A stretch of DNA of 64,000 bases from an uncultured Verrucomicrobiae bacterium (GTDB taxonomy: Bacteria > Verrucomicrobiota > Verrucomicrobiia > Chthoniobacterales > JAFAMB01), in the NCBI GenBank assembly GCA_963762565.1, contig CAVXLD010000001.1, positions 608,001-672,000 of the forward strand. Reading direction: 5' to 3'. This document shows, in pieces, positions 14,152-56,885 of the stretch (its first letter is position 1; each line of letters opens with the position of its first letter). Both the position numbers and the translations under genes were made by a program. A model generated the notes under the pieces. It did no database searches. It was not told the DNA's origin and saw only the letters and a list, made by a program, of their open reading frames with translations.

Positions 14152-14404
14152 CCAACCGCAGATGAACGCAGATTTACGCAGATAAAGATTAAAGCATTAA
14201 CCGCGAATGGACACGAATGAACGCGAATATGCAGGGCGCTAAAGCAGTAACGGATTCATCTGCCGTTTGCTTTTTCTTTGCTTCCAAATCGCAGCCTGTC
14301 CGACGAAGCATCAGCTCCGCGATCTCGTTAGTTCCACACGTCGCGACGTCGGATGCATTCGCGGTTGATTCTTCCGTCTCTTATCTGCGTTCATCTGCGG
14401 TTGG
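14152..14404. repeat. nested inverted 9-mer-arm element inside the ABC operon
   Basis: Outer ccaaccgcagatgaacgcagatttacgcagataa pairs with ttatctgcgttcatctgcggttgg; inner aaccgcgaatggacacgaatgaacgcgaat pairs with cattcgcggtt. Confidence 0.8.
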
Positions 14405-15462: not shown

Positions 15463-15628
15463 GAATAGCCGCCAAAAGGCTAGAGCCTCGCGCAGAGGAC
15501 GCAAAGGACGCTACGAAAAGCAAGGAGGGAATGTGGGTTCTCCTGCCTTTCGTTGCGTCCTTTGCGTCCTCTGCGCGAGGTTTACTTCTCTTTCCTTTGC
15601 AATCTTTGCGCCTTTTTTGCGGCTATTC
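15463..15628. repeat. nested inverted repeat between convergent genes (may also act as terminator)
   Basis: 33-bp IR 15486-15518 / 15548-15580 (1 mismatch, 9-nt units cgcagagga/cgcaaagga) inside outer gaatagccgc...gcggctattc. Confidence 0.8.
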
Positions 15629-28102: not shown

Positions 28103-30562
28103 TCATTCGCGTAGCGCCGTGATTGGGTTAACTCGGGTAGCGCGCAAGGCTGGTACGAGACAGGCGATCGCCGCGGCTACGGCTAGAATCAGGACGGCGG
28201 CCGCCAGCGATATCGGATCACCTCCGGAAACGCCGTATAAAGTGGTCTCCATAAAGCGGACAAGCAGTAACGCCGTTATCATTCCAATCGTCAGGCCGAT
28301 CATCACTAAGTTTAGTCCCTGCCGGACGACCAATCTGAGGATGTTCGACGACTGTGCTCCTAAAGCGATACGCACACCGATCTCTCGCCGGCGCTGAGCA
28401 ACGAAATAGGCGAGCACTGCGTATAGCCCGACCGCGGATAAAAAGAGAGCAACTCCGGAGAAGATAGTAGCCAATAGTGCCGTCAGCCTTCCGAGGGCGA
28501 ACTTTTCCGTTATATGATCGTCGAAGCGCATGACTTGCGTAACCGGCACATCCGGATCAAGCTCAGCCACAATTCGTCGGACCTCGGGAATTAGAGCGAG
28601 CGGATCGCCCGAAGTACGCAACAGCAAGAACTCCGTTCCAAGGACTGTCCTTTCATTATAGGGAAAGTAAGCCTGAAATAGCGGCATAGGGGTTTGAGGC
28701 CCGTTGTGGCGCGAATTCTGTACTACACCGACAATCGTCCAAGTGTCCTTTTTATCCCAAGCTCCTAACCATTGTATTTGTTTCCCGATGGGATTCTGGT
28801 TCGGGAAAAAATGTTCCGCTAAAGCTCTATCTACGATAACGTCCCTCTCGCTATCCGCGCGATCCGCAGAATTAAAGTCCCGACCTTGCAACAGCGGTAT
28901 TTGCATGGTCTCGAAATAGCCGGGCGAGATATTCTGAGCAATGAAGGTTGGTTCGTGACCGGGTTCAGGTGGAGGCACTCCAATCACCCGAAACGGAATA
29001 GTGAAGTCACCAACGGTCCATTCAAAAGGTACTTGATCATTCATCGCGGCCGCGGTGACTCCGGGTAAGTGGCGCGCCTTCTCCAAAACGGCGTCAAATA
29101 ATCGCTGGCAAGGTGCCGTATCGATATATTTCCGGCTGGTCGGGCTTATGTTCGCGCTCAGCAAATGATGCGGGTTATAACCGAGAGGCAGATCCTGGGT
29201 GGCTTTGAAACTGCGGATAAATAGTCCGGAGCCGACCAAAAGCACGCAAGCTAACGCGACCTGGCCCACCACCAGGAATGATTGGATTCGCTGTTGTTGT
29301 GGTCCCGCGGTGCCCGCGGTGCCGGACCGGCCGCCTTCATCTCGAAGAGCTAAACCCAATTTCAAATCGGAAAGGTTAAACGCCGGCGGCAGACCGGCAA
29401 GGAGCGCTACCAGCGTCGTAATCCCTAGTACAAACAACAGCGCGACCGGGTTGAACTCAACCTTTTGGAACGCGTAAAGGTAGACTGGGCTACCCCATTT
29501 GATGAAATCGATCGACCAATGCGCAATCAACACCCCAAGCGCTCCGCCGAGTAAAGAAACCAAGATTATTTCGAGAAGGATTCGAGCGATCAGCCTCAAC
29601 CGCGATGCTCCCAACGTCGCTCTGATCATGGTTTCCTTGCGACGTTCGAGTGCTCGAGCGAAAAATAGGTTCGCCACATTGGCGCTCGAGACGAGCAAGA
29701 GGCACCCTACCCCAGCCGCCAACGACCAAACAAAATTCGAGTAGTCACCCACCATCACGTCCGAAAGTTGAACAATGCGGGTGGTGTTGTTCCTGTCAGT
29801 GTCCGGGTAAAGAAAGTCCAGGTTATTCTGAATCGACGTCAGATCTGCCCCGGCCTGGGCGAGGCTGATACCTTCCTTTAATCGACCCGTACAGGCAGTG
29901 CCCTGCAGGGCACGGTCTTGCAGTGTTCCGCCCCACAACTCGGTAACATGGATCGGGACATACAACAGATCATCAGGCGGGGTACTAACTTCTTCCACTT
30001 GTCTGGGGCAAACTCCAATCACCTGAAAACTTTCCCCACTTAACAGCAAATTCTTCCCGATAATATTAGGATCAGCGTTGAACCGGTGTCTCCATAATTG
30101 TTCACTCAAAACCACGACCAATGGACCGCCGGTTTTATCCTCTTCTTCAGTAAATGGCCGGCCAAGAACAAACGGTAAACCAGTTACCTTAAATAAACTC
30201 GGCGTTGTGCAAACTCCGCTAAGGCGCTCGGGATATCTTTGACCTTGACCACCCAAATCCCAAAAAGTCCAGAATGACGCAGAGAGGCTTTCGAAGGTGT
30301 GCTGGCTTCTGCAAAAATCGAGGTAGTCGGGAAAGTCCACGAATTGGTCCGTGCCATCGGTCGTCGTTCCTTTTGACCGTGACTGATAAATCCTGACTAG
30401 CCGGTCGGTCTTTGGATAAGGAGTTACGTTAAGAATGACGGCTTCAATCAAACTAAAGACCGCAGTGTTTGCGCCGATGCCAAACCCGAGGATTAGGACC
30501 GCGGTGATGGTGAAGCCCGGCGACTTTAGCAGTAGGCGGATTGTCTGGCGGAGATGGCGCAC
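28103..30562 (-). CDS. ADOP orphan permease, array copy 2
   Basis: Intact 819-aa ORF with ADOP N- and C-terminal motifs; GTG start. Confidence 0.92.
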   Translation of the reverse strand: MRHLRQTIRLLLKSPGFTITAVLILGFGIGANTAVFSLIEAVILNVTPYPKTDRLVRIYQSRSKGTTTDGTDQFVDFPDYLDFCRSQHTFESLSASFWTFWDLGGQGQRYPERLSGVCTTPSLFKVTGLPFVLGRPFTEEEDKTGGPLVVVLSEQLWRHRFNADPNIIGKNLLLSGESFQVIGVCPRQVEEVSTPPDDLLYVPIHVTELWGGTLQDRALQGTACTGRLKEGISLAQAGADLTSIQNNLDFLYPDTDRNNTTRIVQLSDVMVGDYSNFVWSLAAGVGCLLLVSSANVANLFFARALERRKETMIRATLGASRLRLIARILLEIILVSLLGGALGVLIAHWSIDFIKWGSPVYLYAFQKVEFNPVALLFVLGITTLVALLAGLPPAFNLSDLKLGLALRDEGGRSGTAGTAGPQQQRIQSFLVVGQVALACVLLVGSGLFIRSFKATQDLPLGYNPHHLLSANISPTSRKYIDTAPCQRLFDAVLEKARHLPGVTAAAMNDQVPFEWTVGDFTIPFRVIGVPPPEPGHEPTFIAQNISPGYFETMQIPLLQGRDFNSADRADSERDVIVDRALAEHFFPNQNPIGKQIQWLGAWDKKDTWTIVGVVQNSRHNGPQTPMPLFQAYFPYNERTVLGTEFLLLRTSGDPLALIPEVRRIVAELDPDVPVTQVMRFDDHITEKFALGRLTALLATIFSGVALFLSAVGLYAVLAYFVAQRRREIGVRIALGAQSSNILRLVVRQGLNLVMIGLTIGMITALLLVRFMETTLYGVSGGDPISLAAAVLILAVAAAIACLVPALRATRVNPITALRE

Positions 30563-30817
30563 GGGGGGAGAGAGGTGAAAAGTGAAAGGTGAGAGGTGAA
30601 AGGTGAGAGGCTAGTAAGCAGTAATCAGTAGGTCAGTAATCAGTGTAGGAGCTAGAATCTAAGAGTTAGGAGTATGTTTTTCTTTGCGATCTTTGCGTTC
30701 TTCCGCCTTCGCCAAGCCTACGGCGCGACAGGTTTTGCAGCTATCTGTCATTTGGGATTTGTTCCGGCGGCTGCCGGATCATGCGCTTCGCCTTGGCTAT
30801 CGGCTATTGGCTATTGG

Positions 30818-30919
30818 TCATTCGCGTAGCGTGTCATTCGCGTAGCGTGATCGCGAGTTTCGCGTAGCGTGTCATGCGCGTAGCGTGTCATGCGCGTAGC
30901 GCCTTATTCGCGTAGCGCG
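30818..30919. repeat. tandem 16-mers duplicating the ADOP 3' end/stop codon
   Basis: tcat(t/g)cgcgtagcgtg, five copies (one degenerate), abutting the gene's own ttattcgcgtagcgcg. Confidence 0.85.
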
Positions 30920-33345
30920 GTGATCGGGTTAATCCGGGCCGCGCGTAGCGCCGGTAATAAACAGGCTAAGGTCCCAGCCAGCCCAAGAACAAGAATGGCG
31001 AGCCCCAGTGTAATCGGATCTGCTGGGGAGACTCCATAGAGTAGTCCTGCGATCAAGGGCGCTGCCACCAGCGCGGCGCCGATTCCTATCACCAGCCCGA
31101 CGCAGACGATCTTGAGTCCTTGTTCGGTGATTAGTCTTAGGATATTGCGGGATTGCGCTCCCAATGCGACACGGATGCCAATCTCGCGTGTCCGCTGGCC
31201 GACGGCATACGCTAGAATACCATAGAGCCCCGTTGCCGATAGGAAAAGCGCGGCGCCGGAAAACAAAGTTACCAGCAGCATGCATAATTTTCGAGTCGCG
31301 AAGTTTTTGGCAATGACATCGTCGTAAGTGCTCACTTCGTAGACCGGCACCCCTGGATCGATCGAACTGACTACTTTGCGAACCGCCGGAACCAAGACGC
31401 CTGGATCAAGGTCCGAACGCAAGATCAGGTACTCAGAATCAAAATTCCATTGGTTATAGGGGAAATAGGCTTGGAATGCGGTCTCCGTCTGACCGGGGCT
31501 TTTGTAACGAAGATGCGGCACGACCCCGACGATGGTGCAATTCTGCGTGCCCTGCATTTGCTGAACGGTGATGTCCTTGCCGAGAGGATTTTGACCCGGG
31601 AAATAATGTTCCGCCAGAGCAGCGTCGACAATAACGACGTCCGATTTATTCACGGTATCTTGCGAATTAAAATCGCGCCCCTGAAGAAGGGGAACCTGCA
31701 GCGTGCGAAAGTAATCCGAAGAAACCATCTGCCAAGCCAGAACCGGCTGGCGACCCGGGCCAGGGTCTGGTTGCCCGTCGATGGTGAAACGGAACAGGAG
31801 CTCCGTATTGTCTTTCAGCGGCGGAAAGTCATTTAGCGCCGCGTCGGTCACCCCGGGTAGCTGGCGGACCTTCGTGCTTACCGCATCCCAGAAGGCCCGG
31901 GTCCGGGCACCGTCGTTCTCGTATTTAGCGCTGGTAATAGAAATCCCTGCGGTAAGCAGATGATGCGGGTTGAAACCGAGCGGGATATTTTGGGCGGCTT
32001 GGAAGCTGCGGACCAGCAATCCCGCTCCAATCAATAGGACACAGGCCAGCGCCACTTGTGCGGTCACCAGAGCGGATTGGGTGCGATGGCGCTGCGGACC
32101 GCTAGTCCCCGCGCGGCCACCTTCATCTTTTAGCCCGGGAGCAAGGCTAGCCCGAGAAAGATTCAAAGCTGGGAGGAGCCCTGAAAGCACTGATGTGAGC
32201 AGGATTACCACAAATACAAACAGCAACGCGTTCAGATCGACGGTGAGCTCCTGAAAACGATATAGACCCGGCGGACTCAGCTTTTTTATAGTCTCAGCAG
32301 AACCAAGAGCAATCGCCAGGCCGAGTATGCTGCCGAAGAACGTTAGAACCATTGTTTCCAGAAGAAGCTGAGCAATCAGCTGCCGCCGACTGGCGCCGAG
32401 GGCAGTTCGCACCATCATCTCCCGGCGACGGTGCAAACCGCGCGCAAAAAGAAGATTGGCGACGTTCGCGCTGGAAATTAACAAGAGACAACCAACGGCA
32501 ACTCCTAAAAGCCACGTGGTGGCTGCATAATCGTTTACCATGCTATCGAGCAGCGGGATTATGCGAAGTCCATAGCCTCGATTAGTACCCGGGTACCGGG
32601 CTGACAGGTTGGTATGGATGGTCTCGAGGTCCGCTTGCGCCTGCGCGACACTCACTCCAGGCTTCAATCGGCCAAGGCAAAGAAAAAAATGGATGTCCCG
32701 AAGCGCCATGGCATCACCGCGATTGGTAGGGAACAATCCGAAAGGGGCAAGAGTATTGGCCGGCACGTAAACATCGGTTGCAGGCGGGCCCCAGTCGTTT
32801 ACTTGAGCAGGAACCACCCCGATCACCTGAAAACTGTGTTCACTGAGGGTGATATTCTTACCAATGATCTCCGGATCAGAATGAAACCGGGTCTTCCAAC
32901 AACGATCGCTTAGGACCGCGAGCAGAGGCCCGTTGGGAATATCCTCCTGATCAGTGAACACACGACCGAGAACAGCCGGGAGGCCGGTCACCTTAAAAAT
33001 GGTGGGAGAAACAAAACCAATCTGGAGGTGTGCTGGCTCCTTATCGCTGCTCAGATCAAGACTGTACCGGCCCACCACAGCCAATGCTGCGAACGTATGC
33101 TGAGCAGCGCTCATATCGACGTAGTCAGGATAATCAACGGCCATGAACGGGTTGTTCTGGTAAGGCTCACAAACCCGGACCAGCCGATCAGGCTCCGGAT
33201 ACGGCAGCGGCTTAAGGATAACCGCATCGATCAAGCTGAAGATGGCGGTGTTAGTCCCGATGCCGAAGCCCAGGATGAGGACGGCTATGATGGTGAAACC
33301 TGGCGATTTTAGCAGGACGCGGATGTTTTGGCGGAGATGGCGCAC
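30904..33345 (-). CDS. ADOP orphan permease, array copy 1
   Basis: Intact 813-aa ORF, GTG start, ending INPITALRE. Confidence 0.92.
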
Positions 33346-34373: not shown

Positions 34374-35888
34374 TTAACCGAGGTGAATCCAGACAGACTT
34401 TGTATGCGTGACGGTCAGCAAAGTTTCAAGACATTTATCTCGTCCGGTGCCGGACTGTTTGAACCCGCCCCAAGGCTGAGTCATATCGCCGTGGTCAAAG
34501 CAGTTAACCCAAATCACGCCGGCATCGATGTCCCTGGCCATTTTGTGAGCTGCGGTCACATCAGAGGTCCAGATCCCGGCAGCAAGGCCGTATATCGAAT
34601 CGTTGGCGATATTTACGGCCTCATCGAGGGTCGAGAAACCGAGTACGGCGCCAACTGGTCCAAAGATCTCTTCCTTGGCGATCTGCATCTGATTGTTCAC
34701 TTCGCTAAACAAGGTCGGCGCCACATAGGAGCCGCGGTTGTAGCCTGCAGGGATATTTCCCCCAAGCACGAGTTCAGCACCCTCTGTTTTGCCGATATCA
34801 ATAAACGAAAGAACCTTTTGTTGTTGGCTCCGGCTTACCAGAGGGCCCATGGTGGTAGCGGGATCAAGCGGATCACCTAATCGTACCGTTGCTCCTACTT
34901 TTTCCTTAAATCGTTCGATGAATTCGTGGCGAATAGTCCCGTCGACTAAAATCCGGGATCCGGCGCTGCACATCTCGCCTTTGTTCCCGTAGATTCCGTT
35001 GACCGCGTAGGCGACGGCGACGTCTAGATCTGGAACCTGGGCGGTGATGATCTGCGGTGATTTACCGCCGGTTTCCACCGTAACGCGTTTCAGGTTCGAT
35101 TCACCTGCGTAAACCATCATTAATTTGCCGACCGTGGTGGAGCCAGTGAAGCTGATTTTGTCGACATCCATGTGTAGAGCCAGCGCTTTCCCGACAATGC
35201 TACCGGCACCGTGCACTACGTTGAATACGCCCGGCGGGCCGCCGGCCTCCACGAACAGTTGAGCCAAGAGGGTAGAGGATAACGGTGATAGTTCGGCCGG
35301 CTTCAGCACGACGGAGTTACCTGCCGCTAACGCCGGGGCCACCTTCCAGGCGTTCATCAGTAACGGATAGTTCCAAGGTGTGATACACGCCACTACCCCC
35401 AGCGGCTGGCGCAGAATGTAATGGAAGGCATCGGACGCCGTGTTGGTAACGACTCCCTCGATTTTGTCGATGGTTTCTCCGAAGTATTGAAAGGTCAGCG
35501 CTGCGGCTGGGACATCGCCCGTGAGCATTTCTACCACCGGTTTGCCAACATCCAGCGAATCGAGCAGAGCAAACTCGAGCGCATGCTCATCGATCAAGTT
35601 CGCCAAACGATAAAGAACCTCCATGCGGGCGCGTGGTTCCATGCGCGCCCAAACACCGGACTTAAACGCTTTGCGAGCCGAGGCTACCGCAAGATCGACA
35701 TCTTCGCCGGTCCCTGCCGGCACCGTCGCTAAGACTTGATCATTTGCCGGATTGACGGTCTCGAATCGAGCTCCAGAATTTGTGTCCACCAACTCTCCGT
35801 TGATGAACATGCGCGTTTCCGGTTTTAGGGCCGCAGCGTACCGCCGAAATTCATCGTAACTCAGCGCTCTGGCTTCTTTAGCGTTCAT
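34374..35888 (-). CDS. NAD(P)-dependent aldehyde dehydrogenase (PuuC/betaine-aldehyde-like)
   Basis: ITPWNYP, FTGST, ETGGKSP, catalytic GEMCSAG, EEIFGPV and PWGGFKQSG motifs. Confidence 0.93.
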   Translation of the reverse strand: MNAKEARALSYDEFRRYAAALKPETRMFINGELVDTNSGARFETVNPANDQVLATVPAGTGEDVDLAVASARKAFKSGVWARMEPRARMEVLYRLANLIDEHALEFALLDSLDVGKPVVEMLTGDVPAAALTFQYFGETIDKIEGVVTNTASDAFHYILRQPLGVVACITPWNYPLLMNAWKVAPALAAGNSVVLKPAELSPLSSTLLAQLFVEAGGPPGVFNVVHGAGSIVGKALALHMDVDKISFTGSTTVGKLMMVYAGESNLKRVTVETGGKSPQIITAQVPDLDVAVAYAVNGIYGNKGEMCSAGSRILVDGTIRHEFIERFKEKVGATVRLGDPLDPATTMGPLVSRSQQQKVLSFIDIGKTEGAELVLGGNIPAGYNRGSYVAPTLFSEVNNQMQIAKEEIFGPVGAVLGFSTLDEAVNIANDSIYGLAAGIWTSDVTAAHKMARDIDAGVIWVNCFDHGDMTQPWGGFKQSGTGRDKCLETLLTVTHTKSVWIHLG

Positions 35889-35904
35889 CGCCAAAATCCT
35901 ATTT

Positions 35905-36434
35905 AGATCCGCAGATTACTCAGATTACGCAGATTTCTTTGGGGTTGAGCTAAGGTGTTGCGTCATGGGACCAGACAAAGCGCTGGTGCTGCAAACTTGT
36001 AGCTCCGAAGTTGAAGACCAGGCCCCTTTGGTGCCGGCCAGCTTTCAAGTAATTTAGAACTTGAGCTGTCTCTACGTCGCCGAGTTTGCCCAAGGCTTTG
36101 AGCTCGACGATGATTGAGTCGTAACAAAGCACGTCAGCTCGATAGGATGAGCGGAGTTCTCGGCCTTTGTAAAAAACCGGCATCGCGGCTTGGGGATAGA
36201 AAGGAATTCTTCGATCGGTGAGCTCGAGTTCGAGCGCCTCCTGGTACACCGGTTCCAGAAAGCCGCATCCGAGTTCCTTATGAACCTCCAGCGCCGCTCC
36301 AATGATTTGATAGGTTTGATCATCCATGCGAAATAATAACATATTAACATAATGTTCTCTACGTCGAATCTCAACCCCGGCGGTACCATTACTCCCAAAA
36401 CAAAATCTGCGTAATCTGTGTAATCTGCGGATCT
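35905..36434. mobile_element. putative GxxExxY element bounded by 32-bp inverted repeats
   Basis: agatccgcagattactcagattacgcagattt (35905-35936) vs aaatctgcgtaatctgtgtaatctgcggatct (36403-36434), 1 mismatch; interrupts the Rieske-ALDH junction. Confidence 0.65.
35950..36342 (-). CDS. GxxExxY protein (PD-(D/E)XK nuclease superfamily)
   Basis: IIGAALEVHKELGCGFLEPVYQEAL, YRAD, VELKA, AQVLNYLKA and NFG motifs. Confidence 0.92.
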   Translation of the reverse strand: MLLFRMDDQTYQIIGAALEVHKELGCGFLEPVYQEALELELTDRRIPFYPQAAMPVFYKGRELRSSYRADVLCYDSIIVELKALGKLGDVETAQVLNYLKAGRHQRGLVFNFGATSLQHQRFVWSHDATP

Positions 36435-36453
36435 TTTCGTTTTTGCCGGTTTC

Positions 36454-38754
36454 TCAAAGATCGAGCACAACCTCCCGTTCCCCGCCGGAAGCGGTCTGGG
36501 CCAGATCAGAGCGAGGAATCGAGCAACAGAGCAAAACTTCGCCTGGGCCGCGCACCGCCACCGGTTCTTCCAAGTAATCGACTGCGCCGTTGCTAATGCG
36601 CGTGGTACAGGTCCCGCAGATACCGGAGCGGCACCCGAACTTCGGAGCTAAACCGATCGATTCGGCAAGCTCGAGCAAAGTGCCTTTGTCGCGTGACCAT
36701 TCGGCGGTGGTTCCCGATTTGGCAAACCGAACCCGGACCGGAGGAACGTCAGCGTGACCAGGCTCGATCACTGTTTGCGGCCTTCTTTCCGGTTTCAGAA
36801 CCGTTGCCGGACCGAAGGACTCGTAATGGATTCGTTCCTCCCGGACGCCGATTCCGGTGAGGCCATCATAAAGCGATTTCATGAAGGGCGGCGGACCACA
36901 GAGATAAAAGTCGTAGTCGCCAAACGGGAGCATCTGTTTGAGTGTTTCGATGCTGATCCATCCAACGGAATCGCACTGATTATCCGGTCCTGCGTCAGGC
37001 TCCGGATGACTGTAGGCGATATGCACTTTCAGTCCCGGATGCTGGCCGGTGAGATCCCGGATATGCTTGGAGAACGCGTGCACCCTGTGGTTATGAGTAC
37101 CATGGATGAAGTAAGCAGGTCGAAACTTCCCCGTGCGGCGCCCCTCGTCGACCAGGTATTCAGCCATCGCGATCATTGGGGTAATGCCGACGCCGCCAGA
37201 AATCAGTACCGGTATTCGACCGTTAGAATTGAGAATAAATTTACCCCGGGGTGCAGCCGCCTCCAGTCGAAAGCCGGGCTTTGCATTGGCATGCAAAAAC
37301 GGTGAGACCAGTGCGTTTCCTCCTTCGCGGCGGATACTCAAGCGATAGTGATCGGCATTTGGAGCAGCCGAAAGTGTGTAAGTGCGTAACGCAGGCTCTT
37401 TTTGCCCGGGGATCGTTATCCGAATCGGTAAAAACTGGCCCGGTTCCCAAGGTTGAAGCGCCTGGCTGTCCGGACGCCGAAAATAGAAGGAAGTGATAAT
37501 ATCGCTTTCGGGCTCCACCTTAAACAATTCTAACTCGACATAAGCGCTCCGCTCAGTCTCTGAAGCCGCTGAAGAGGTCGGAGCGACCGAGATCGTTTCC
37601 GAAACTCCCCGCACGTCTTCCGCCATCGATTTGAGCGCTGTCGCGTCGCCGGCGACCGCGCTAGCAACCAGCTTTTGAAAATGACCAACCAGATGCTCAG
37701 CCCGGGTCAGAAACCTGCCCCGTTCCGGTATGGCCGCTCGCAATCCGCGCTGGACCGAGTCGGTAAGGACATCATCTTCGAGGCCGACCTGAACGTTGAA
37801 TCCAATCAGTTCTTGCGCGAATTCCTGCGAGACACCAGGGCCGAAATACTGTTCAGAGAAGCCCTTCGTGCCATTGGGGCCATTTGGTATCCAGACATCG
37901 ATCGAAAGATTCGGGAACCCAGGATTGATATTGACCGTCATGTTTGGCCAGAGCAGGTGATATTGGGCTTGGGCGACTTCACCTCTGGCGTCGTAAATCT
38001 TGACCTGGCTTTTACCTTCCAACGCGGACTGCCGTACCTGACCGACCTGACTCATGAACCAGCCGTGCACACCGAGATTGTAGTTCTCCGGTAAAACATC
38101 GATCGCGGCGCTGAAGCCCGGATGGGCTACGGCGCAGTGATAACATTCGAGATAATTCTCGAGCATGGTCTTCCAATTAGAGTAGGACTCCCATTCTCCG
38201 CGCTCGTACAAAACCAGAGAATCAAGATCGATCCCGCTCCCAGCAACAATCTCAAGCAATTTGCCGAATTGGGTCTTTACGGGTGAGGCACTCGGATCTG
38301 CGTTGACAAAAACCCACGGGCCCAGCGTATCGACTTTGAGCGGCAGAAGCGGATAATCCTCAAGTCGAAAGTTAGGTTCTGTCGCCGTTCGCGGCGCACC
38401 CTTCAGGCGGCCCGTTAGATCGTAGGTCCAGGCGTGATAACCGCATTGCATCATTTGGGCATTTCCACAGCCCTTCATCACTTCGTGCCGGCGATGCCGG
38501 CAAACATTGTTCAACGCGGTCAGACCGCCTTCGTTACGGATTACCACGGCGGGGATACCGCCCACATAACCGGTGATATAATCGCCGATATTGGTTAGCT
38601 GTTTGAGCGGGCCGATGTAATTCCAGCTTTTCCTGAAGATCTGACTAATCTCTCGGTCAGTGATCGAGGGATCGGTATACCAATACGCGGGTAGGCTTTC
38701 ACCACGGTCGAGGCCGGCTACCAAGCCGGCTAGGTTTTCACTAGATTGGTTCAT
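36454..38754 (-). CDS. fused Rieske non-heme iron oxygenase (choline/carnitine monooxygenase-like alpha subunit) + FAD/NAD reductase + [2Fe-2S] ferredoxin
   Basis: Rieske CRH...CGYH; mononuclear Fe ENYLECYHCAVAH...ED; reductase RTYTLS, GGVGITP, CGPPPFM; ferredoxin CRSGICGTC...C; single uninterrupted 766-aa ORF. Confidence 0.9.
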   Translation of the reverse strand: MNQSSENLAGLVAGLDRGESLPAYWYTDPSITDREISQIFRKSWNYIGPLKQLTNIGDYITGYVGGIPAVVIRNEGGLTALNNVCRHRRHEVMKGCGNAQMMQCGYHAWTYDLTGRLKGAPRTATEPNFRLEDYPLLPLKVDTLGPWVFVNADPSASPVKTQFGKLLEIVAGSGIDLDSLVLYERGEWESYSNWKTMLENYLECYHCAVAHPGFSAAIDVLPENYNLGVHGWFMSQVGQVRQSALEGKSQVKIYDARGEVAQAQYHLLWPNMTVNINPGFPNLSIDVWIPNGPNGTKGFSEQYFGPGVSQEFAQELIGFNVQVGLEDDVLTDSVQRGLRAAIPERGRFLTRAEHLVGHFQKLVASAVAGDATALKSMAEDVRGVSETISVAPTSSAASETERSAYVELELFKVEPESDIITSFYFRRPDSQALQPWEPGQFLPIRITIPGQKEPALRTYTLSAAPNADHYRLSIRREGGNALVSPFLHANAKPGFRLEAAAPRGKFILNSNGRIPVLISGGVGITPMIAMAEYLVDEGRRTGKFRPAYFIHGTHNHRVHAFSKHIRDLTGQHPGLKVHIAYSHPEPDAGPDNQCDSVGWISIETLKQMLPFGDYDFYLCGPPPFMKSLYDGLTGIGVREERIHYESFGPATVLKPERRPQTVIEPGHADVPPVRVRFAKSGTTAEWSRDKGTLLELAESIGLAPKFGCRSGICGTCTTRISNGAVDYLEEPVAVRGPGEVLLCCSIPRSDLAQTASGGEREVVLDL

Positions 38755-40246: not shown

Positions 40247-40448
40247 GGAGGGGAGCCGCTTTGTAAGATGGCAAGTCTATCGGTTTCTAGCAGGCGGCTC
40301 CCGGAAACGGTCCCTGATGCGTTTGTTCTATCAACTCTGCAAGCCCCGTTTTCGAAAGGCCGAGCGGCGATGGAACACGCTGGGTCCTTCCCGGGAGCCG
40401 CCTGCTAGAAACCGATAGACTTGCCATCTTACAAAGCGGCTCCCCTCC
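40247..40448. mobile_element. MITE/REPIN-like element with perfect 58-bp inverted arms, nested in a GTGGAGCG REP pair (40156-40574)
   Basis: 40247-40304 is the exact reverse complement of 40391-40448. Confidence 0.8.
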
Positions 40449-40680
40449 GGCGCGCGGCACACCAATGCCGTACGCTGGGACCGAAACCGGATTCGAGGAC
40501 AGCTTGTCCGCCGAAGCCCAGGCTCTATTTCGTCACCCGCCCAAAGTCGGCCTCGCAAGCGAGGCGCGCTCCACAAGAAGTAATCGGCAAAGACGGAAGG
40601 ACGAGAACGAAGCGCCTTCTAAGTTTTGCGCCCTTTTTGCGGCGATCCCCAATCTTCGTATAGTCCTCCCGACTTCAGAA

Positions 40681-44853: not shown

Positions 44854-44936
44854 TTTCACAACAAAGGCCGCAAAGGCCACAAAGAGGGATTTTTCTGTCT
44901 CCTATCTTTGTGGCCTTTGCGGCCTTTGTTGTGAAA
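44854..44936. repeat. perfect 32-bp inverted repeat (CAAAGGCC 9-mer-arm family)
   Basis: tttcacaacaaaggccgcaaaggccacaaaga / tctttgtggcctttgcggcctttgttgtgaaa; a further right arm lies at 45530-45560. Confidence 0.9.
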
Positions 44937-45039
44937 TTTTGGGCTTCGACTTTGCGTTCTTGCGTGATATCCCTGCGTTTCGCTGTGACTCTGGTACTTT
45001 GCGGCTTTGTTGTGGCTTTGTCTTTTGGCCGGACTAGGA

Positions 45040-45437
45040 CTACAGAGCTTCCTTAAGGACTACGCGTCGGATTCCGTTCTTCAGAACGACCTCGTGAAAG
45101 TTGAACAAAAGGCCTAACGGCCTTTTGAGGAGCTTCATATAGCTCATGAGCTGGGCTTCGTGGATTGGGAGAATTTCTTGTACGGCCTTAAACTCAAGAA
45201 TCAGGACGTCATCAATCAGAAAGTCGAGTCGCAAAGGTTCCTCGAAAACGAAACCTTTGTACTCCAGTTCAACCCTCAGCTCTCTTACATATGGAATCTG
45301 ACGAAGCTCGCACTCCCGGCCAAAACACTTTTGTAAATCTCTTCGATTAAGCCGGGACCCTCGATCCGATGAACCTCTATAGCCGCCCCGATTACACCGC
45401 TGCTCCACACGTTAGCTTTCCGTAACGAATCCCACAT
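45040..45437 (-). CDS. GxxExxY protein with one frameshift near 45330 (error or pseudogene)
   Basis: MWDSLRKANVWSSGVIGAAIEVHRIEGPGLIEEIY in one frame, then RLDFLIDD.LILEFKAV..ILPIHEAQLMSYMKL...LLFNF in the listed ORF. Confidence 0.8.
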
Positions 45438-45640
45438 TTCGTTAACCTAGTGAATCCGACACTCAACAACATAGTATTTATATGTTTTATTCTATCAAGA
45501 AAACGGAATCAACCACGGTCGTTCTGAACCTTTGTGGCCTCTGCGGCCTTTGCTGTGAAATTTTTTCAGTGGACCTCGACAACTGCGCGGACCGGCAGCC
45601 CGGTCCGCGCCTTGTCTCAAGAAGTCTCGCTGTGCCGGCT

Positions 45641-48306: not shown

Positions 48307-48387
48307 TTCACAACAAAGGCCTCAAAGGCCGCCAAGATAAGAGACACAGAAATCCCTCTTTGTGGCCTTTGCGGCCTTTGCTGTGAA
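48307..48387. repeat. gene-less hairpin of the CAAAGGCC family, inverted relative to 44854-44936
   Basis: Same arms; spacer taagagacacagaaatccc approximates the reverse complement of the 44886-44904 spacer. Confidence 0.85.
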
Positions 48388-56574: not shown

Positions 56575-56885
56575 CAACCGCGAATGGACACGAATTGACG
56601 CGAACAGCCGGAAAGAAAAAACCGAACCGCAGATGGACGCAGATTTACGCAGATAATTCGGCTTCGATTACGGTTCATTCAAAGGCTGCCAACGTTAGGT
56701 TTCAGGATGGCGCTCATTACTTTTGCCGCCCAAGCAGTTGAGCGCTCACACAGTCTAACGCCCAAAACTCGCAAACTCCTCTGAACCGAACGAAGCACCA
56801 GCACCGTCTCTGCGTAAATCTGCGTCCATCTGCGGTTGGTTGTTTTGAGGCTTTTATTCGGTCAATTCGCGTCCATTCGCGGTTG
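56575..56885. repeat. nested inverted 9-mer-arm element (CGAAT outer, CAGAT inner)
   Basis: Perfect 29-bp IR 56625-56653 / 56809-56837 inside near-perfect IR 56575-56604 / 56857-56885. Confidence 0.88.

Follow-up and report, generated by a model that had tools for sequence, protein, structure and literature searches.

The window, by which we mean the whole stretch of 64,000 nucleotides analysed from an uncultured Verrucomicrobiae bacterium, contains a locus in which an MFS transporter precedes a Rieske/NAD-binding/2Fe-2S fusion gene (36454-38754, minus strand) and an aldehyde dehydrogenase gene (34374-35888, minus strand). Between the fusion gene upstream and the dehydrogenase gene downstream sits a GxxExxY/PDDEXK_3 nuclease-fold gene (35950-36342, minus strand; 130 aa as listed), enclosed by two arms of 32 nt each (35905-35936, plus strand; 36403-36434, minus strand) that are complementary at 31 of 32 positions (97%). 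The left arm consists of the head AGATCC and three 9-nt units, CGCAGATTA-CTCAGATTA-CGCAGATTT; the right arm reads inward as CGCAGATTA-CACAGATTA-CGCAGATTT, and both belong to a repeat family that we denote A. A single arm has no structure by itself (-0.2 to -0.3 kcal/mol, z +0.9), that is, it forms no hairpin. The core of the original prediction, an intact GxxExxY reading frame inside inverted arms of three 9-nt units, is confirmed by this complementarity and by the TIGR04256 and PF13366 matches given below. The inner 9-bp inverted repeat that it described (35941-35949, plus strand; 36370-36378, minus strand) does exist, and its left copy resembles an inward extension of family A; however, the repeat is asymmetric, is one of six perfect 9-nt pairs within 1.2 kb, and may be due to chance. 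The host fusion gene encodes a single 766-aa protein in which a Rieske oxygenase is joined to FAD/NAD-binding and 2Fe-2S domains, and no full-length orthologue of it was found in about 300 genomes of the phylum.

The limits of the inserted unit are given by a congener, G003 (88-91% identity here), the only one among 61 genomes with the operon. In G003 the Rieske and dehydrogenase genes are 13 nt apart, and positions 35894-36446 of the window (553 bp) are replaced by one base, gene and arms being absent together. The orthologous operons thus do not all retain the gene, and the same operon minus 553 bp means that the window unit represents either an insertion or a clean loss. These are not polarised by a single empty site at 88-91% identity, and insertion is the parsimonious reading of the sequences. 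No second orthologous operon was present in 43 genomes of the family or 301 of the phylum, and G019 has the Rieske domain alone, in another context. Relative to the empty site the insert reaches 11 nt past the left arm and 12 nt past the right arm. The search for an empty site in related operons was rewarded in G003, but no target duplication is evident there, although one of 2-3 nt could escape detection at 88-91% identity. The TTT noted on both outer sides falls in both copies within the 553 bp missing from the empty site; TTT and GCC were both rejected as target duplications, since the empty site does not support them. In five arm families there was no sign of a long duplication, shared words of at least 6 nt showing no excess.

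The cassette lies between the Rieske and dehydrogenase genes, as predicted, but it does not stop short of the putative dehydrogenase ribosome-binding site. An AGGA word (35897-35900, minus strand), which would act as a Shine-Dalgarno sequence 8 nt before the dehydrogenase ATG (35888), is inside the insert, so the cassette supplies this word rather than sitting upstream of it. Within the cassette, two overlapping sigma-70-like promoters are predicted by consensus match alone (36333-36374, minus strand; 2 found, 0.5 expected), and a palindromic, putatively operator motif, AACAY-N9-RTGTT (36338-36356), stands 10 nt before the likely start of the gene, an ATG at 36327 that gives a protein of 125 aa. 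No intrinsic terminator was found at the cassette. Contigs of a near-identical strain (run X2, possibly from the source campaign) bridge both the dehydrogenase-arm-gene and the arm-Rieske junctions, which makes an assembly artefact unlikely; contigs of four sequencing runs gave no supported joint across the whole insert. The runs containing the window sequence are soil metagenomes, with no RNA run among those listed.

The window protein matches TIGR04256 (GxxExxY; E 4e-40, 136.7 bits, cut-off 35) and PF13366 (PDDEXK_3; E 5e-38, 130.5 bits, cut-off 22). No other domain, and so no known transposase domain, was matched down to an E value of 0.1. All of E30, D70, E80, K82, Q94 and Y98 (130-aa numbering) are present, forming a pattern that we take to be the E..D..ExK..QxxxY motif; in 126 sequences E30 and D70 are invariant and the other four are at least 90% conserved. 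A structure model built from these 126 sequences reached a pLDDT of 89.5 (51 for an earlier model from 13 sequences). Its top Foldseek match is Cas4 SSO0001 (PDB 4ic1; E 3e-4, TM 0.56), and the leading rows of a wide structure search are PD-(D/E)XK nucleases (best Z 8.0), while a sequence search against solved structures returned 0 matches. The predicted structure is thus that of a PD-(D/E)XK protein with intact active-site residues. It is like Cas4 SSO0001 and the RecB and lambda-exonuclease-type nucleases in modelled fold and in the E..D..ExK..QxxxY residues, and unlike Cas4-type nucleases in its size of 125-130 aa, in having no conserved Fe-S cysteine columns and in having no CRISPR context. 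Ten homologue pairs gave dN of 0.02-0.16 against dS of 0.18 to saturated, which indicates that the gene is under purifying selection. The family is very large, with 39,539 clusters at 50% identity, and many homologues of 240-390 aa have two matched stretches (P0121-P0143), apparently tandem GxxExxY domains. According to the available part of a published survey, PDDEXK_3 is of unknown function and has undergone multiple transfers (PMC3424549).

The arrangement seen in the window is repeated throughout the genome. There are 13 GxxExxY loci, fragments included, and 8 further intact genes were confirmed as TIGR04256. Inverted repeats scoring at least 18 occur in the 220-nt flanks of 11 of the 13 loci, each with arms of 8-10-nt units and each with a different word; at a twelfth locus the arms are slightly farther out than these flanks. 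Such repeats accompanied 3 of 300 long ORFs (1 periodic) and 41 of 1,816 small ORFs (29 periodic), and the 29 periodic cases comprise 8 GxxExxY genes, 5 four-helix-bundle genes and 16 ordinary genes. That GxxExxY genes are flanked by arms more often than other genes, as had been proposed, is accordingly upheld: 11 of 13 against 3 of 300 long and 16 of about 1,800 small ORFs, an enrichment of roughly 100-fold over other small ORFs. A de novo scan recovered 1,583 inverted repeats in the genome, 599 of them periodic, against 0 in 2.58 Mb of shuffled DNA, and arm copies numbered 221 in the genome against 1 in its shuffled version. For 16 hand-defined arm families the genome contains 2,313 matching arms and 592 pairs that face inward; gene-less doublets occupy 77.5 kb. 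For each gene there are about 30 pairs without one, and such pairs are found nested within one another. The second clade-A gene of the genome sits in compound arms. Some GxxExxY copies are frameshifted or deleted; in one of them (C13:1374-1636) the middle of the gene is missing, and what remains is its start, its last codons, the upstream motif and the two arms.

Several of these elements are in the window itself. A second, frameshifted GxxExxY cassette of another clade (44857-45557, minus strand) has its own arm family, E2; two subtilase-like genes in tandem flank it, and in G002 this site is occupied by an intact homologue. Gene-less doublets of families B (14154-14402), F (15487-15579) and E2 (48309-48385) are also present, as is a nested pair in which family C (56576-56884) surrounds family B (56625-56837). 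Nested J, M and L arms occupy the spacer (about 30613-30821) of two convergent ABC-permease-like genes of about 815 aa (28103-33345), and further REP-like families are abundant, for instance near 30700 and at 40250-40570. Elsewhere in the assembly, families J and O (218 and 176 arms) have no enclosed cognate gene that we could find, and a family-N (TCGTCC) array appears to lie inside coding sequence (L028:5613-5751; C3, about 795,100-795,250), where congeners have different inserts.

The arm word was compared with protein phylogeny in 177 distinct GxxExxY genes, 170 of them with full flanks. The repeat test was passed by 83 of the 170 homologues, 87 staying below threshold, and by 0 of 130 shifted windows. 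On a tree of the 177 proteins the arm labels require 66 changes, against 122 when shuffled (0/200); this was a quick tree with 86 of 174 forks open, and the labels were partly adjusted after the repeat-test data had been seen. Labels of clade-A type span at least 12 phylum names. In a blind test, matrices were trained on the arms of this genome alone and calls were accepted above a shuffle threshold. Among 75 cross-phylum loci, all retrieved with a clade-A query, 67 were called (58 A, 4 B, 4 C, 1 J). Within the phylum 57 of 85 were called, 37 of them exact matches to the family of the nearest paralog and 43 matches to its family group, where 12.4 were expected (0/5,000 permutations), a statistic that is overstated because kin are not independent. 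In the reverse test, 3 of 125 metagenome arms found by DNA pattern alone, among the matches listed, had a GxxExxY gene inward, all of clade A. The predicted co-variation of arm sequence with protein phylogeny is thus found, both in the label changes (66 against 122) and in the 58 of 75 loci assigned to family A across phyla. On this evidence the arm word follows the protein clade and not the host, each GxxExxY clade being tied to its own 8-10-nt word, present as two inward-facing arrays of 2-3 units. Co-inheritance of one cassette would be equally expected to produce such co-variation, which is not proof of recognition.

Comparison of congeners shows how these cassettes behave over time. The window copy has no flank in common with six close clade-A homologues; in clades C, E, F and H the site is often kept across congeners, and two common sites have the cassette in opposite orientations within its arms (in-place inversions, in L151 versus L152/L153 and in L175/L176 versus L177). 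Orthologous spacers carry different families and interiors in different congeners. Exact ends could not be recovered from congeners at 75-85% identity, where spacers are too diverged or refilled. The cassette is a unit that is present or absent at a site, occupies other places in close relatives and can turn round within its site, and its movement is slow, with vertical retention. Slow movement with vertical retention has been described for RAYTs, according to the available part of that work (PMC5581495). The claim that the element is autonomous is favoured by the empty site, the gene-less population and one internal-deletion derivative, but the word overstates the rate, because many paralogous cassettes are site-stable across congeners and there are no near-identical family-A interiors.

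Family A comprises 157 arms and 58 pairs in this genome; 57 pairs are gene-less, and the window cassette is the sole one longer than 330 bp. The interior measures 92-99 nt in 33 of the 58, with smaller groups at 142-143 and 189-192 nt. Interiors have a mean identity of 33% and a fold z near 0, and their profile is mirror-symmetric, with an own complementarity of 0.325 against 0.312 across elements. That interiors are RNA structures was rejected, for they have neither a fold nor own-partner pairing. Subfamilies reach roughly 65-90% identity over aligned parts, but no two family-A doublets are near-identical throughout, the closest pair matching at 131 of 167 positions, which argues against a recent burst. 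Three related family-A doublets with 189-191-nt interiors lie within 7 kb (C3:791245-797966) in alternating orientation, which suggests local hopping. Of 34 doublets listed from four congeners, 23 come down to 93-98 nt (a hand count, with a pattern that allowed a limited range), whereas the matches listed from mixed metagenomes have interiors of anything between 8 and more than 200 nt; a universal 94-nt ruler was rejected, spacing being lineage-specific and metagenome interiors variable. Both arms of another family enclose 12 of the 58 family-A pairs.

These doublets bear on the claim that gene-less arms derive from the gene-bearing cassette. The genome does hold a large gene-less population and one internal-deletion copy, but the gene-less arms of the window belong to families B, C, E2, F and K. 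Moreover, a typical family-A interior is unlike the cassette interior (best score 30, null maximum 31), so the gene-less arms did not arise from the window cassette by simple deletion. That origin was rejected for all interiors but C13:1374-1636.

The first alternative to be weighed places the function of the arms in RNA: as in intervening sequences (IVS), they would form a stem by which the insert is looped out of, or cut from, a transcript in the manner of RNase III, the gene being a passenger or an RNA binder and movement being left to recombination. When folded, the whole cassette does form a long stem from its arms (z -7.5), and family-A doublets lie mostly (51 of 57) between co-directional or convergent genes. 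On the transcribed strand G.U exceeds A.C weakly in the pooled 8-10-nt families (52:31, p 0.028; 8:5 in family A alone), but sense-strand deamination would likewise produce G.U. At variable arm positions of family A the own partner fits no better than a foreign arm (69/71, 55/55 and 91/92%), and the same is true of families B and C, whereas J, K and L fit their own partner slightly better, and the two bases just outside the head match the own partner better (60/40 and 65/46%). How many units one arm has does not depend on the other arm (21/19/7 observed, about 20/21/6 expected). Arms that match their partners no better than foreign arms favour DNA binding sites over an RNA stem; in addition, the arms vary freely in unit number, the interiors are unfolded, a clade-specific word that spans at least 12 phylum labels is nothing that a stem would call for, and the cassette is not located in rRNA. 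A precedent is the Coxiella 23S IVS, a 28-bp terminal stem around a four-helix-bundle ORF, cut by RNase III according to the available text (PMC4990558), and members of this protein family are found inside arms in the present genome. All in all, we regard the RNA reading as unlikely.

A second alternative is that the protein is a domesticated host function that binds its word for repair, defence, chromosome organisation or autoregulation, while arrays spread by slippage and gene conversion and not as cargo. Strong purifying selection, the vertical retention of clades C, E, F and H at shared sites and the maintenance of about 10 paralogs in one genome would all fit, as would the absence of viral matches to the window protein (59 pattern matches in viral contigs, none a relative). 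The common operator-like motif points the same way: AACAY-N9-RTGTT recurs in different GxxExxY clades within this bacterial family, lying upstream of 41 of 69 genes and downstream of none, and its stricter form precedes 0 of 104 GxxExxY genes of other lineages. Its 66 genome sites compare with 24 in shuffled sequence, so weak sites are partly noise; other sites are at C1:118986, C9:102208, C10:17845, C7:409163, C1:1345694 and C5:395806. The motif was rejected as an SOS box, since neither lexA nor recA scores and lexA bears TGTTC-N4-GAACA, which we take to be the verrucomicrobial LexA box. Against a host function, whole cassettes are present or absent, relocated and flipped, copies are frameshifted and deleted, and inward pairs at set spacing are not a product of slippage; we therefore hold it to be improbable.

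The same design is shared by a second protein family. Inverted arrays of 6-8-nt units enclose 6 of the 8 four-helix-bundle (PF05635/TIGR02436) matches, and each such gene (for example at L024, L025, L026, L027, C5:382068-382597 and C7:441090-441548) has a word to itself, which also occurs in dozens of doublets without a gene. To our knowledge this family has no nuclease fold, and a nuclease may therefore not be required, which is the main doubt about the nuclease as the mover. In the accessible part of one report, the PF05635 family is said to resemble Avd (PMC10053308). Two unrelated families with one design could also mean that GxxExxY and four-helix-bundle genes are both cargo, their doublets being moved in trans by the Y1 (HUH) transposases of the genome, of which there are 12 Y1_Tnp matches, located apart from the window cassette; AACAY-N9-RTGTT scores at least 13.6 bits before 6 of these 12 and also precedes 2 of the 8 four-helix-bundle genes. 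However, Y1 genes are flanked by palindromes of their own that mostly lack periodicity, the arm word changes with the GxxExxY clade, and the single arm lacks the hairpin that TnpAREP requires according to the part of the study available (PMC8266576), so that transfer in trans by Y1 enzymes seems very improbable. Five of the Y1_Tnp genes (C7:408772, C3:712536, C3:55497, C9:102253 and C1:119032) have long non-periodic inverted flanks of REP/RAYT-like appearance. Finally, coincidence, that is, common host repeats lying beside any small gene, could invoke the 2,313 arm matches of 16 families and the 16 ordinary small ORFs with periodic repeats on both sides, but is refuted by the roughly 100-fold enrichment, the clade-specific words and an empty site in G003 that lacks gene and arms together, and can hardly be entertained.

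The reading that we prefer, and consider somewhat better than even, is that the word is recognised as DNA by the protein, which pairs two arrays and makes cuts alongside them, host repair then completing the copying or insertion. Its first step is quite probable: the word would be recognised in DNA with one protomer or dimer per unit. The protein might then bring two arrays together and nick or cut beside the arms, and pairing of two arrays would account for the constant interior length in this genus (93-98 nt, about nine helical turns). Host repair or recombination would copy or insert the arm-bounded piece, often into an existing foldback and without a long target duplication. Whether the nuclease is the catalyst of this copying or insertion is nearly an even question, on which we lean slightly to the negative. 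The gene cassette would be the rare self-carrying form, slow-moving, partly domesticated and restrained by a host regulator acting at AACAY-N9-RTGTT. Binding, cutting and mobilising of the arms by the nuclease is what we infer from sequence. In its boldest form, put forward tentatively, the proposal is of a new class of mobile element: a minimal Cas4-like nuclease would read tandem 8-10-nt double-stranded words, pair arrays across set helical turns and cut, the unit being copied into new spacers or older foldbacks, with a parallel four-helix-bundle system and one host regulator.

Through these arms a very large family of unknown function, PDDEXK_3/GxxExxY, gains a candidate substrate that can be read from the flanks of the gene, which makes binding and cutting directly testable, with cognate and non-cognate controls from one genome. 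The partnership also offers a cause for unexplained short-unit inverted arrays in intergenic spacers and ties these arrays to ORF-bearing rRNA intervening sequences. Were the nuclease the mover, a repeat-spreading chemistry other than HUH or DDE would be at work, and the family would amount to a naturally occurring collection of 125-aa nucleases, each sequence-specific and with a target that could be predicted.

Among known systems the closest is RAYT/REPIN (the REPtron), to which the original prediction had likened the element. According to the available parts of the reports, both have one enzyme gene flanked by cognate repeats (PMC3116915, PMC5581495, PMC8266576, PMC3733652), several repeat families in one genome, each with its own enzyme next to it, inverted doublets that lack a gene and keep a family-specific spacing (here 33 of 58 at 92-99 nt, and not universal), insertion into existing doublets, and a mostly vertical, slow-moving gene; the repeat family co-varies with the enzyme clade in both. 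The likeness in cognate repeats, doublets and co-variation therefore stands, but the cassette, while it works like RAYT/REPIN, fails three defining features: (i) its enzyme is of the PD-(D/E)XK type, not an HUH Y1 tyrosine transposase; (ii) its arms are non-palindromic tandem arrays with the head ATCC, not GTAG/CGTC; (iii) its interior is unpaired and without compensation, whereas REPIN spacers, in the text available, are hairpins with compensatory changes. In addition, the whole gene cassette changes site and orientation here.

IS elements with MITE derivatives have terminal inverted repeats around a gene. The cassette resembles them in these repeats and in one internal-deletion derivative (C13:1374-1636), and departs from them in having no DDE transposase, no detectable target duplication and no identical copies, and in ending 11-12 nt outside the repeats. 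The 23S rRNA IVS with S23p/four-helix-bundle ORFs is similar, in the accessible description, in placing a small ORF within a loop closed by a terminal stem of about 30 bp and in being sporadically present (PMC4990558), and its protein family lies within 6-8-nt arms in this genome; here, however, the inserts occupy intergenic spacers of protein operons and have a nuclease-fold cargo and periodic arms specific to the clade, and dozens of copies without a gene are scattered about. The window cassette is thus neither an rRNA IVS nor a standard IS/MITE. The GGGAATC repeats of Xanthomonas and the Nostoc heptamers are likewise intergenic short-unit tandem arrays, often in convergent pairs (70 in Xcc), but they have G-rich units studied as quadruplexes, and no linked gene is reported in the part of that paper available (PMC4692102).

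The literature searched, mostly outside subscription journals, contained no description of a partnership between GxxExxY genes and repeats. The gene-arm layout is real, general and undescribed in that literature, and gene plus matching gene-less word pairs point to an undescribed gene-and-repeat partnership; that it is categorically new, which would follow if the nuclease is the mobiliser, is a possibility that we rate below even. Beside the systems compared here, what is new from this genome is the blind test across many paralogs, the fixed unpaired interior, the absence of own-partner matching and the common upstream motif.
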